Below, one piece after another: positions 18,659 to 21,732 of a stretch of DNA of 24,000 nt. Below the pieces are notes generated by a model. That model was not told the origin of the DNA and made no database searches. It worked only from the letters and a program-made list of their open reading frames with translations. This DNA is from Roseivirga sp. (GTDB taxonomy: Bacteria; Bacteroidota; Bacteroidia; Cytophagales; Cyclobacteriaceae), in the NCBI RefSeq assembly GCF_965216855.1, contig NZ_OZ244204.1, positions 60,855-84,854 on the forward strand, read 5' to 3'. The first letter of the stretch is position 1. Each line of letters starts with the position of its first letter. The position numbers were made by a program, and so were the translations under genes.

Positions 18659-20323
18659 TTACACCTCCCCCAAATACTCATGCACGAACTTAATGGCCAT
18701 GGCGCCTTCTCCTACCGCTGAGGCCACTCGGTTCATGGCTCCTGCCCTAACATCACCTGCCGCAAAGATTCCGGGAGTGCTGGTTTCCAAAAGAAATGGT
18801 TCTCGTTGCTTTTTCCAGATTTTCCTGAAGTCCTCATCCTTATGAGCATCGCGTCCTGTCAAAATAAAGCCTCTTTCATTCTTCAGTATGCTCTCCCCTG
18901 TCCAACTGGTATATGGTCTCGCTCCAATAAAGATTAATAGCGCGCCAGCAGGCTTTTTCTCAGAAGTCTCAGAATCCAGATTCTTTAGGGTAACACACTC
19001 CAAATGCGTATCGCCATGAGCCGATTCAATAACTGACCTTGGTACAAGGCTGATATTGGCAGTACCGTCAATCTGATCGATAAGGTATTGACTCATACTG
19101 CTCGACAGATCAGGCTTACGGATAACGATATAGACGTTTTTAGCAAAGTTGCTCAGGTACATGGCCGCCTGTCCGGCAGAGTTTCCACCACCTACAATGT
19201 AAACATCTTTGTCTCTGCAGGCATGTGCTTCCGTAGTAGCAGCGCCATAGTAAATACCCGCTCCTGTATAGTTGTCTATTCCCGTTGCGTCTAACTTTCG
19301 GTACTGTACCCCGGTAGTAATGATCACCGCTTTGGTGTGAATCTGCTCTCCATTCTCCAGCACAATCTTCTTGTAGTTATCCTGCGTTTCAACGCCCACT
19401 ACGCTTTGGGGAGAAAGGAATTCAATACCAAATCGTCTGGCCTGGGTAATGGCCCTTTGCGTCAACTCCGCACCGGACAGCCCCTTGGGAAAGCCCAGAT
19501 AGTTTTCAATTCTGGAACTGGTACCGGCCTGCCCACCCGGGGCATGTTTTTCAATCAATAAGGTTTTAAGACCTTCTGAACCACCATAAACCGCAGCAGC
19601 CATACCCGCAGGACCTGCTCCGATAATAGCTACATCATACATCTTCTCAGCGGCTTTTGAGCTAAGGCCTATCTTCTCGCCCAGCTCTACGGAAGAAGGA
19701 TTGGGCAAATGCGAACCATCTTCGAAGAACACAGCCGGTAAATGCTGATCGCTGAGATTGGTCAGTTGCAATAATTCTTTAGCCTCAGGCTCACTGAGAA
19801 TATCCATCCACTGATATGGAATCAGGTTGCCGGACAGGAAATCCTTCACGGCATGCGACTTAGGTGAATACTGATAACCAATCACCCGAATCCCTTTGAA
19901 TGTCGGTATGTGGCTGACCTGCCACTCGTCCAATAAATCATTCAGGGTTGGATAAAGCTTTTCTTCTGGCGGGTCCCAGGGCTTGTTGAGGTAATAATCC
20001 AGCTGTACATCATTAATGGCCTTAATAGCAGCCTCTATATCTGAATAAGCCGTCAGTAAAACCCTTCTGGCTGTTGGATAAAGCTTTCGAGCTTGCTCCA
20101 GGAATTCTACCCCCGTCATTTCAGGCATTCGCTGATCTGACAGGAATAATGCTACGTCTTCACCTGCCTGCTTCAATTCCTTTAGACCACCTAAGGCTTC
20201 CCTGGCTGAAGAAGTGCTCAGTATCCTGTAATTCGCTCGGTATTGCTTTCTAATATCCCGCCTGATGGCAGCTAGTACCTGCTCATCATCGTCAATAAGA
20301 AAAATGATTGGTTGTTTCGACAT
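18659..20323 (-). CDS. Response regulator fused to a glutaredoxin-like domain and a thioredoxin-reductase-like flavoprotein body lacking CxxC
   Basis: ORF track, 554 aa. REC: DDD11-13, acceptor D63 (LFLSDQRMPEMTG), T91, K114 (YLNKPW). The Grx-shaped segment (residues ~144-220) has SPKS where CPYC would sit. TrxR-like body: YDVAIIGAGPAGMAAA (FAD), VYIVGGGNSAGQAA (NAD(P)H), FAAGDV. The E. coli CATC position aligns to AATT (residues 361-364). Confidence 0.88.
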   Translation of the reverse strand: MSKQPIIFLIDDDEQVLAAIRRDIRKQYRANYRILSTSSAREALGGLKELKQAGEDVALFLSDQRMPEMTGVEFLEQARKLYPTARRVLLTAYSDIEAAIKAINDVQLDYYLNKPWDPPEEKLYPTLNDLLDEWQVSHIPTFKGIRVIGYQYSPKSHAVKDFLSGNLIPYQWMDILSEPEAKELLQLTNLSDQHLPAVFFEDGSHLPNPSSVELGEKIGLSSKAAEKMYDVAIIGAGPAGMAAAVYGGSEGLKTLLIEKHAPGGQAGTSSRIENYLGFPKGLSGAELTQRAITQARRFGIEFLSPQSVVGVETQDNYKKIVLENGEQIHTKAVIITTGVQYRKLDATGIDNYTGAGIYYGAATTEAHACRDKDVYIVGGGNSAGQAAMYLSNFAKNVYIVIRKPDLSSSMSQYLIDQIDGTANISLVPRSVIESAHGDTHLECVTLKNLDSETSEKKPAGALLIFIGARPYTSWTGESILKNERGFILTGRDAHKDEDFRKIWKKQREPFLLETSTPGIFAAGDVRAGAMNRVASAVGEGAMAIKFVHEYLGEV

Positions 20324-20328
20324 TTGAG

Positions 20329-21732
20329 TTATTGATGGTTAATGGGTAGTCTAAATTCAAAAGTGGTTTTACCAGGCTCAGATTCCAGGCTCATCAGACC
20401 CTTGTGATCTTCTATGATGCGTTGCACGGTTTCCAATCCTAACCCGGTTCCTTTTCCTATGTCTTTGGTGGTGAAGAATGGTTCAAAAATCCGATCCTGA
20501 ATTTCCTGAGGAATACCCTTTCCGGAATCGGTAATAGCAACACTCACCTGCTCCCCGACCAGGGCCGTCTTGATGGTCAGTGTTCCTCCCTTGTCTTCCA
20601 TAGCATCCAGGGCATTATCGATGATATTGGTCCACACCTGATTCAATACACCCGGACTGGCCTCAATCTTAGGTAAATTAGCAGCCCATTGCTCTTCTAC
20701 CTTTACCTGATTTTTCTTCACCTTATGATTCAGTATGGACAGCGTAACTCTCAGACCCTCATGGATATCTGTAGGCTCATAGTCTCCCGCTCTGTCCATA
20801 TGAGAATAATTCTTAACACTATTCACCAGGGTTGAAATTCGATTAGAAGCGTCCTTGATTTCTCCTACCATTTTCTCCGTGGTCAGCACATTATCTACCC
20901 ATTCCAAGACAGAAGGAAACTCCTTATCACCCATGGTTTCTTTAAGTCCATCCAGATCTGATGCTTCAAACTGATAATCGGCCAGTGTTTCGGCCAGCAT
21001 GTAACAGTCGCCATAGCCATTATCTTCCAGCCAATCCGTTAACTCATCTTCCCGTTCAGCTCTGGCCAGCATTGACTGTGTTTTGATAATGCCGTTGTGC
21101 AGTTTACCAAAGACCAGTTGATTGACATAATCAATCTGATCATCATCAATATTGATGGAAATTACCCGTTTCAGTTTATCAGGAACTGTTCCCAAATGCT
21201 TTTGCAGTGACTCGGCACTTCTCACAATAGCTGCAGCTGGATTATTTAGCTCATGTGCCAGTCCGGCAGATAGCTTACCCAGTGCCATTAGCTTTTCATT
21301 CTGGTGCTGAAAACGGCTAAAATCTCTAACACGGTCAGTCATTAAATGAACCAACAAAGCCGTCAGTTCGTGACACTCGCAGATCAGATCCTTGAAGTGA
21401 TCTTTATGCAGTGTAAAGACACTGCTCTCTGAAACGGCAAAGGCATTTCCTGTGGCAGACTGTGCTCGGCTGTAAGGCAAAGCGCCTGAAATCTCCCCTG
21501 TCTTAATCTGTGCCAGCTCCTTATATTGACCGCCTTGCTGAATTTTGAGAGATACCAGTCCATCGATCATCACCATCAGCCGATCGATACTATCACCTCG
21601 TTTAAAAATCTGCTCCCCGGATTTAAAGACGATGAATTCTCCCCTTTCAACGATCCACTCGATTTGTTCCAAAGGGATTTCCTGAAAGATGGGGAAGGAT
21701 AAGATTTTGTTGATTAAGTCTGGCTGGTTCAT
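20329..21732 (-). CDS. Sensor histidine kinase with an N-terminal cyclic-nucleotide-binding-like domain
   Basis: ORF track, 467 aa, soluble with no TM. cNMP-like barrel: FPIFQEIPLEQIEWIVERGEF...GEISGALPYSRAQSATGNAFA. H-box: LSAGLAHELNNPAAAI. N box: NIIDNALDA. G1: DSGKGI. G2: GTGLGL. The stop lies 5 nt upstream of the response-regulator start. Confidence 0.88.
   Translation of the reverse strand: MNQPDLINKILSFPIFQEIPLEQIEWIVERGEFIVFKSGEQIFKRGDSIDRLMVMIDGLVSLKIQQGGQYKELAQIKTGEISGALPYSRAQSATGNAFAVSESSVFTLHKDHFKDLICECHELTALLVHLMTDRVRDFSRFQHQNEKLMALGKLSAGLAHELNNPAAAIVRSAESLQKHLGTVPDKLKRVISINIDDDQIDYVNQLVFGKLHNGIIKTQSMLARAEREDELTDWLEDNGYGDCYMLAETLADYQFEASDLDGLKETMGDKEFPSVLEWVDNVLTTEKMVGEIKDASNRISTLVNSVKNYSHMDRAGDYEPTDIHEGLRVTLSILNHKVKKNQVKVEEQWAANLPKIEASPGVLNQVWTNIIDNALDAMEDKGGTLTIKTALVGEQVSVAITDSGKGIPQEIQDRIFEPFFTTKDIGKGTGLGLETVQRIIEDHKGLMSLESEPGKTTFEFRLPINHQ

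Follow-up and report, generated by a model that had tools for sequence, protein, structure and literature searches.

Two-component regulators nearly always target transcription or second-messenger and chemotaxis enzymes. Response regulators with a described enzymatic output include CheB, a methylesterase, the cyclases PleD and WspR, and the phosphodiesterase RpfG. In this study, we analyzed a stretch of 24,000 nt from Roseivirga sp. (Bacteroidota, Cytophagales; NZ_OZ244204.1, positions 60,855-84,854), which is called the window in its full length. At positions 18659-21732 it carries the genes for a sensor histidine kinase and a response regulator. In the regulator, a receiver domain (REC) is followed by a glutaredoxin (Grx)-fold domain and a thioredoxin reductase (TrxR)-fold body with motifs for flavin adenine dinucleotide (FAD) and NAD(P)H. 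We consider it fairly probable that both proteins form a cognate, co-transcribed two-component pair, which gates an NAD(P)H-oxidising FAD enzyme working without a disulfide relay. If true, such direct control of a flavin oxidoreductase by phosphorylation would be a new route from a signal to redox metabolism.

The architecture as such is already catalogued, since the combination of REC and TrxB, a class of Galperin's response-regulator census, is listed as the output class "TrxB / pyridine nucleotide-disulphide oxidoreductase" in response-regulator censuses (PMC5847659, PMC9953108). An earlier note on this DNA had held phosphorylation control of a pyridine-nucleotide/flavin oxidoreductase to be uncharacterised. 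This agrees with the literature found, which consists of the census listings and contains no functional description of this output type. In a search that left most subscription journals outside, no functional study was found of REC-TrxB, its kinase, the cysteine loss, the sensor pocket or the neighbouring zf-UBP gene described below. Likewise, the literature yielded no functional study of fusions of a cyclic-nucleotide-binding (cNMP) domain with the TrxR-fold body or of zf-UBP together with ergothioneine.

Conservation and signalling domains of the kinase-regulator pair

The stop codon of the kinase gene and the ATG of the regulator gene are separated by 5 nt (TAA-CTCAA-ATG), and both proteins have counterparts with 100% identity on one 4.66-Mb contig of Roseivirga sp. 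Upstream of the kinase gene, on the same strand, lies lpxB with a gap of 43 bp to the kinase start. The open reading frames and both distances are exactly as described in the earlier note. Scans of positions 18300-23300 for sigma-70 promoters and intrinsic terminators gave counts at or below the shuffled expectation, with Bacteroidota promoters being outside the coverage of the scan.

For identification of related loci, a pattern scan was carried out with one genome per GTDB species. It gave at least 600 matches, of which the best 80 were analyzed as the REC-class set. These 80 loci encode full-length proteins of 550-557 amino acids, which are 50-68% identical to the regulator. The source genomes belong to Bacteroidota (with Balneola and a Chlorobi-like lineage among them), Chloroflexota, Acidobacteriota, Cyanobacteria, Gemmatimonadota, Planctomycetota, Actinomycetota, Pseudomonadota (Burkholderiales) and Eisenbacteria. 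In 63 of the 80 genomes, covering at least nine phyla, a full-length kinase homologue is encoded at a distance of up to 600 bp from the regulator gene. Among these kinase genes, 61 are located on the same strand as the regulator gene, 31 of them downstream and 30 upstream, frequently with a 4-bp overlap, and two are divergent. The similarity scores of regulator and kinase co-vary (r=0.87, n=65). Because the adjacency persists through inversion of the gene order across phyla, there is good evidence that kinase and regulator are a functional pair. The conserved neighbourhood that the earlier note had expected was thus found, and in both gene orders.

The kinase shows no hydrophobic segment (maximal Kyte-Doolittle value over 19 residues: 0.94) and is therefore predicted to be soluble. 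Its HisKA and HATPase_c domains match above the Pfam cutoffs. H160, E161, N164 and P165 are invariant in all 63 partner kinases, and H160 together with the N, G1, F and G2 boxes shows no variation in 36 kinase homologues or in the 63 kinases adjacent to a regulator gene. The invariant residues of the ATPase domain are N369, N373, D402, G404, G406, F419, F420, G426, G428 and G430. Judged by these residues, the protein is intact as a two-component kinase. In the AlphaFold model (predicted local distance difference test (pLDDT): 80.5) a beta-barrel (residues 32-109) is followed by a C-helix which runs unbroken into the H-box helix (residues 121-181). The second helix of the dimerisation and histidine phosphotransfer (DHp) domain is a long helix (257-313), after which the ATPase domain follows. 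The helical insertion between both DHp helices forms helices at 183-190, 197-213, 221-237 and 244-252 and gave no Pfam match over residues 183-256; E228, W234 and L235 are conserved within it. A CxC-H motif at the junction of barrel and helix (C118, C120, H121) was considered as a thiol or metal sensor and was rejected as a general feature, as it is kept solely in a subset of the Bacteroidota (C120 in 23 of 63 kinases).

The receiver domain of the regulator reaches 57 bits with the Response_reg model (cutoff: 30.2). D11, D12, D63, T91 and K114 are invariant in 40 regulator homologues, which marks D63 as the conserved, predicted phospho-acceptor Asp. The nearest receiver models and structures are of the RpfG/NosR type (NF053512 at 1.8e-33; PDB 2rjn).

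The flavoprotein body and its cysteines

The AlphaFold model of the regulator (mean pLDDT 78.9) consists of three parts, namely the receiver, the Grx fold and the two-Rossmann body. The Grx fold covers residues 145-217 in the order beta-alpha-beta-alpha-beta-beta-alpha (strand 145-149, helix 154-165, strand 170-174, helix 179-187, strands 197-199 and 205-207, helix 211-217). It is matched by the mycoredoxin model TIGR02200 at residues 149-218; the Pfam model Glutaredoxin matches residues 154-203 weakly (E=0.0017, 19.0 bits vs. cutoff 22.9). All domains named in the earlier note were recovered by Pfam or NCBIfam models, with Glutaredoxin below its Pfam cutoff and supported by TIGR02200. The regulator domain has this fold in common with glutaredoxins. 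It lacks the active-site CxxC or CxxS that glutaredoxins carry where helix 1 starts, and S153-P-K-S156-H157 occupies the place of the Grx CPYC.

Within the body, the FAD motifs G235xG237xxG240, G263-G-Q265 and G523-D524 and the NAD(P)H motif G378-G-G-N-S-A383 are invariant in the 40 regulator homologues. TrxRs from the PDB match the regulator down to 1e-47, and Foldseek places the body best on TrxR structures with template modelling (TM) scores of 0.80-0.83, including the L. lactis enzyme deposited as "FR conformation". The best NCBIfam match is the TrxR model TIGR01292 with 227.2 bits, compared to a curated equivalog cutoff of 343.45. HMMER pairs Y-G-A-A-T-T-E of the regulator with Y-C-A-V-C-D of L. 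lactis TrxR (5mh4). In this alignment, C-A-V-C of 5mh4 lies opposite G360-A-A-T363. MAFFT puts CATC of E. coli TrxB, for which a sequence entered by hand was used, at the same four residues.

Cysteines and motifs were counted in 118 long representatives of the family, of which 82 carry REC (REC-class) and 32 an N-terminal cNMP_binding domain (cNMP-class, described below). None of the 118 has a Cys at position 360, 363 or 364; the TrxR CxxC is replaced by the motif [YF]YGAxxxEA across all of them. Where TrxR has its acid-base Asp, 99 representatives carry a Glu (E365). At the Grx site, a C..[CS] pattern occurs in two of the 118. The NADPH 2'-phosphate motif HRRxxxR aligns to I401-R402-K403-P-D-L-S407, with R402 being kept in 112 representatives. 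The regulator contains two cysteines in total, C369 and C443. C369 was considered as a universal catalytic Cys and rejected, as it is present in 34 of the 118 representatives. It is conserved in Bacteroidota and in most of the cNMP-class; REC-class members from outside the Bacteroidota mostly have L, M or V instead.

As both the TrxR CxxC and the Grx CxxC are lost family-wide, the regulator, as far as its sequence tells, cannot work as a thioredoxin-disulfide reductase through the established mechanism. Of the thioredoxin-reductase-like body that the earlier note had seen, the fold and the FAD and NAD(P)H fingerprints hold; the catalytic CxxC is absent throughout the family and the Grx-like domain has no active-site Cys. 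The NCBI name "fused response regulator/thioredoxin-disulfide reductase", which the note had given, is indeed in use. Its part "thioredoxin-disulfide reductase" is probably misleading for this family. A large and highly conserved family with matches in at least 600 species genomes is annotated with a function that its sequence cannot perform by the known mechanism.

Sensor domains and neighbouring genes at related loci

The flavoprotein body also occurs with a different input. An exhaustive HMMER search against 1.84 billion representatives yielded many proteins with a length of 545-580 amino acids which match the regulator over residues ~140-553 alone. Nine of ten sampled body-only matches carry an N-terminal cNMP_binding domain, and one has C-terminal EF-hands. 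This fusion of the cNMP module with the flavoprotein body, mentioned in the earlier note, was thus found in the sampled proteins, in the 32 cNMP-class representatives and at 80 metagenomic loci. The latter were analyzed together with the 80 REC-class loci, resulting in 160 loci (L001-L160). Identity between both classes is 45-50% in the body and ~30% in the Grx-fold domain. The cNMP-fused flavoproteins resemble the regulator in the Grx- and TrxR-fold body, in the cysteine loss and in the zf-UBP neighbour. They differ by the CAP-fold domain replacing REC and by the lack of a kinase gene nearby (0/80 metagenomic loci). As the cNMP-class carries the CAP fold instead of REC without a kinase in its vicinity, the body is a module with interchangeable input, presumably under the control of phosphorylation or of a CAP-fold domain fused to it directly.

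The sensor domain of the Roseivirga kinase has its best PDB matches in the regulatory domains of PKA and PKG. With the cyclic-nucleotide receptors (CAP, PKA, CNG) it shares the beta-barrel fold and the C-helix. The canonical phosphate-binding cassette of these receptors reads G-E...R-[ST/A]-A, where the Glu contacts the ribose and the Arg the phosphate. Both residues are absent in the kinase. According to the HMMER alignment to PKA RII and the MAFFT alignment with CRP, MlotiK1 and PKA, A84 and A93 stand in the places of the Glu and the Arg, respectively (G83-A84 ... A93-T94). The pocket motif of the kinase is G83-A-L-P-Y-S-R89, and G-x-L-P-[YF]-S-R is common to the kinases of Bacteroidota, Gemmatimonadota and many Acidobacteriota. 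Among the 63 partner kinases the cassette Glu is retained in 20 and the Arg in two, both from Chloroflexota; none of 24 direct cNMP_binding fusions retains the Arg. Since Glu and Arg are replaced by Ala and the Arg is nearly lost across the partner kinases, cAMP or cGMP appears doubtful as input of the Roseivirga kinase. This weakens the pathway from second messenger to redox enzyme which the earlier note had proposed. CAP-fold domains in other regulators bind haem, 2-oxoglutarate, chlorophenols or glutathione. The two Chloroflexota kinases (L029, 8470-9891 (+), and L059, 7956-9434 (+)) are the sole partner kinases with a canonical cassette (GEMSLL...PR-SA / PR-MA). In this lineage, a genuine cyclic-nucleotide input may be present or ancestral.

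Clustering of the open reading frames of the 160 loci revealed a Cys/His protein of ~90 amino acids, which belongs to Pfam zf-UBP (PF02148, 4e-12 to 8e-15) and has the consensus C.H...CeeC...WvHLR.C..CG...CCDsS...H...H.....HP. The positions after CG...C, which in eukaryotic UBP domains are presumably Arg-Tyr, read D-S in the bacterial proteins. Its gene is located within 600 bp of the flavoprotein gene at 14 of 80 REC-class and 21 of 80 cNMP-class loci. Over the whole of the fetched flanks, which reach up to 6 kb on each side, it is found at 23 and 28 loci, respectively, i.e., at 51 of 160. Examples come from Dyadobacter (L008) and Chitinophaga (L001). These counts are underestimates, as many metagenomic contigs are short, and they compare with a chance expectation of ~0.4 loci for a single-copy gene. 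Because zf-UBP accompanies the body in both classes, its link is with the flavoprotein and not with the phosphorelay. This recurring bacterial ZnF-UBP neighbour is a candidate partner for two orphan families at once.

Other neighbours are found less often. EgtB-like genes (DinB_2 + FGE-sulfatase) occur at seven and EgtD-like genes (histidine methyltransferase, Methyltransf_33) at six of the 80 REC-class loci. Clusters of egtB, egtD, zf-UBP, kinase and regulator genes were observed in varied orders in Bacteroidota, Acidobacteriota and a Burkholderiales metagenome-assembled genome. Genes for Dps/ferritin-like proteins are located beside or near the flavoprotein gene at 8 of 160 loci, mostly of the cNMP-class. 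These occasional neighbours suggest a theme of oxidative or thiol/iron stress. In addition, a Kef-type cation/proton antiporter (Na_H_Exchanger + TrkA_N) with a fused C-terminal zf-UBP is encoded beside the regulator gene at L072 (7893-9932 (+)). At L006, a Kef-type antiporter gene (1876-3459 (+)) lies beside the pair and is followed by a separate zf-UBP gene (4270-4521 (+)). Clusters of antisense open reading frames at the related loci were dismissed as artefacts of GC-rich loci.

The position of lpxB, which the earlier note had mentioned, is not conserved. As an LpxB homologue neighbours none of the 160 related loci, a functional link to the pair was ruled out and the placement is incidental. 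A role in anti-phage defence (Pycsar-type cNMP effectors) was considered as well and rejected: a PADLOC family search gave no system-protein match for the regulator, the cNMP-fused form or zf-UBP. The kinase sensor domain showed weak matches on the domain level alone (4e-5 to 6e-4).

Several further genes were noted in the window. Downstream of the regulator gene, a convergent open reading frame of 458 amino acids (17257-18633 (+)), 25 bp away between the stop codons, shows a weak DUF922-like region (0.0017). A second one is located at 8699-9574 (-) (2.3e-8). In both proteins the DUF922-like matches are C-terminal or central regions. At 15897-16468 (+), the beginning of a ParE-like toxin frame overlaps with the antitoxin gene parD (PF03693, 2.3e-27). 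A single in-frame stop follows codon 41 of the toxin frame, so that the toxin is probably inactivated. A small protein encoded at 8171-8590 (-) consists of a divergent 4Fe-4S mono-cluster domain (Fer4_19) and a CDGSH iron-sulfur domain, and an open reading frame of 180 amino acids at 14750-15292 (-) matches the RebB "killing trait" (R-body) domain (7.2e-8).

Features of the kinase-regulator locus and of related loci. Positions refer to the window or, after a locus name (L001-L160), to that locus.
Feature	Position	Strand	Basis
Soluble sensor histidine kinase, 467 amino acids	20329-21732	(-)	Open reading frame; Pfam cNMP_binding, HisKA, HATPase_c; no transmembrane segment
CAP/cNMP_binding-fold beta-barrel sensor domain (residues 35-117)	21382-21630	(-)	PF00027, 3e-10, 40.4 bits vs. 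cutoff 27.5
HisKA H-box helix (residues 151-194); predicted phospho-accepting His160 at 21253-21255	21151-21282	(-)	PF00512
Helical insertion of ~75 amino acids (residues 183-256) between both DHp helices	20965-21186	(-)	AlphaFold model
HATPase_c catalytic domain (residues 363-464) with N, G1, F and G2 boxes	20341-20646	(-)	PF02518, 5.6e-24
Response regulator with flavoprotein output (REC, Grx-fold, TrxR-fold), 554 amino acids	18659-20323	(-)	Open reading frame; Pfam/NCBIfam domains; AlphaFold model
Receiver domain (residues 7-119); predicted phospho-acceptor D63 at 20135-20137	19967-20305	(-)	PF00072, 2.6e-15
Glutaredoxin-fold domain without active-site cysteines (residues 145-218)	19670-19891	(-)	TIGR02200, 1.3e-8; AlphaFold fold
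TrxR-fold two-Rossmann FAD/NAD(P)H body (residues 229-553)	18665-19639	(-)	PF07992 Pyr_redox_2 at 229-540, 5e-35
Family signature Y358-Y-G-A-A-T-T-E-A366 in place of the TrxR CATCD motif	19226-19252	(-)	HMMER/MAFFT alignments
lpxB	21776-22918	(-)	PF02684, 2.2e-81; TIGR00215 above cutoff
zf-UBP genes (examples)	L008 7654-7926; L074 5546-5818; L081 7232-7501	(+)	
Ergothioneine-synthesis genes near the pair	L008 2166-4362; L009; L012; L017; L023; L042; L074 2795-5509; L114		
Dps/ferritin-like genes	L086; L100 4759-5394; L141 3085-3678; L149; L128; L134; L108; L032		

Proposed mechanism and comparison with known systems

The following mechanism is proposed for the pair. The cytoplasmic kinase may sense a small ligand, probably not cAMP or cGMP, in its CAP-fold barrel, and the ligand-bound barrel would act on His160 via the continuous C-helix/H-box helix. 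After autophosphorylation on His160, the phosphoryl group would be transferred to Asp63 of the regulator. The output is predicted to be an FAD-containing, NAD(P)H-oxidising enzyme with the fold of a low-Mr TrxR. Because the regulator has no disulfide relay, electrons would leave the flavin directly to an external acceptor. TrxR-fold enzymes must rotate their NAD(P)H domain widely to turn over. Phosphorylation of D63 would most likely shift the REC and Grx-fold module against the flavin and NAD(P)H domains. As turnover needs the large rotation, this shift would control whether the acceptor or NAD(P)H can gain access. In the sister proteins, the same body would be gated directly by the fused CAP-fold domain. 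The interchange of REC and CAP fold on one body is a natural experiment on the gating of TrxR-fold domain rotation. As leading candidate for the acceptor, by analogy, we propose the small UBP-type zinc-finger metalloprotein, which is encoded beside the flavoprotein gene elsewhere and not in the window.

A wider claim is possible, if rather doubtful. The body would be a hitherto unrecognised kind of signal-gated NAD(P)H:acceptor flavoenzyme without a disulfide relay, switched by Asp phosphorylation or by a ligand other than a cyclic nucleotide in the fused CAP-fold domain. Its physiological acceptor would be the co-encoded zf-UBP. Both proteins would make up a regulated electron-transfer module, linked across many phyla to the homeostasis of oxidative state, iron or low-molecular-weight thiols (ergothioneine).

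Some observations weigh against the gated flavoenzyme. About one fifth of the regulator loci lack a kinase (e.g., L007, L017, L039, L043 and L079, with complete flanks), and a PAS kinase stands in place of the kinase homologue at L072, so that the pairing, although strong, is not obligatory. The canonical cassette at L029 and L059 leaves a cyclic-nucleotide input possible in some lineages. The NADPH 2'-phosphate motif is down to one conserved Arg, and the AlphaFold model falls below a pLDDT of 50 at residues 260-273 and 525-538, which are FAD-contacting loops. Both the arrangement of the domains and the gating are inferred. Furthermore, the Roseivirga window contains none of zf-UBP, EgtB, EgtD and Kef homologues, according to a six-frame search, and no Dps, so that the idea of a zf-UBP partner is not tied to this genome.

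Among the other explanations, it is unlikely that the body is a sensor of the redox or NAD(P)H state instead of a catalyst. The regulator would then integrate phosphorylation with the pyridine-nucleotide or oxygen status and signal via protein-protein contact, e.g., to zf-UBP, with no net turnover. The loss of the catalytic cysteines beside strictly conserved cofactor motifs and the small conserved partner gene adjoining in many genomes are consistent with this. Across Cytophagales relatives, the regulator (66-70% identity) is also far more conserved than the kinase (48-50%), a pattern to be expected if many interactions constrain the protein. However, the Glu at the acid-base position in 99 of 118 representatives and the tight family motif suggest a working site and not decay. 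In addition, both classes carry an input-type module, REC or cNMP, at the N-terminus, and the flavoprotein thus takes the place of the output. Sequence alone cannot separate sensor from enzyme.

Slightly less likely is a TrxR-type ferredoxin/flavodoxin-NAD(P)+ reductase (FNR) or a Bdr/YpdA-like disulfide reductase for low-molecular-weight thiols, with ergothioneine disulfide as a possible substrate, under two-component control. FNR and Bdr/YpdA are known TrxR-fold enzymes that work without CxxC, and they match the regulator at 1e-19 to 1e-14 (FNRs of the PDB) and 1.4e-16 (YpdA model TIGR04018). The EgtB- and EgtD-like genes, which occur in several phyla and varied orders, point in the same direction. 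However, the similarity to TrxR and AhpF (1e-47) is far above that to FNR or YpdA, the Egt linkage concerns less than 10% of the loci and not the window, and the protein ends after the last helix of the FAD domain (538-553), with no C-terminal extension of the FNR type evident.

The literal pathway of the earlier note, in which cAMP or cGMP binds to the kinase and the phosphorelay acts on a genuine thioredoxin- or glutaredoxin-type disulfide reductase, is the least likely of these explanations, although cNMP_binding matches above its Pfam cutoff, PKA and PKG lead the PDB matches, TrxR is the best NCBIfam match and family name, and C369, five residues past the lost CxxC, could in principle support single-Cys chemistry: the cassette Glu and Arg are both Ala with hardly any Arg left among partner kinases and fusions, none of the 118 representatives has the TrxR CxxC, and the Grx CxxC is missing too, the TIGR01292 score stays at 227 vs. 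343, and C369 itself is exchanged in most REC-class members outside the Bacteroidota.

One of the closest known systems is the low-Mr TrxR (TrxB), with which the regulator shares the two-Rossmann FAD/NAD(P)H fold (TM 0.80-0.83, 28-33% identity) and the motifs GxGxxG, GGQ, GD and GGGNSA. TrxB has the redox-active CATC and HRRxxxR; the regulator shows GAAT within [YF]YGAxxxEA, a single Arg and a score below the TIGR01292 cutoff. In the ranking of Foldseek, AhpF is first for the regulator model, aligning over the full length with ~566 columns. It also has an N-terminal thioredoxin-fold module tethered to a TrxR-fold body, but contains a CxxC in both modules and no receiver. The regulator has neither CxxC and carries REC, and the AhpF model TIGR03140 reaches 153.7 on it vs. 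a cutoff of 502.9. The TrxR-type FNRs have the absence of CxxC in common with the regulator, and the C-terminal extension by which they stack on the FAD is not seen in the model.

Rubredoxin reductase is a flavoprotein of the pyridine-nucleotide-disulfide-oxidoreductase family without a redox disulfide, encoded beside rubredoxin, a small Cys-rich metalloprotein. The flavoprotein and zf-UBP may be analogous to this couple; they belong to a different subfamily, with a partner of the ZnF-UBP fold and none in the window. As in CheB, PleD/WspR and RpfG, an N-terminal REC with all phospho-acceptor residues precedes a C-terminal enzyme domain. Unlike the regulator's predicted output, the outputs of these proteins are not flavin oxidoreductases, and the regulator adds a Cys-less Grx-fold domain between REC and enzyme.

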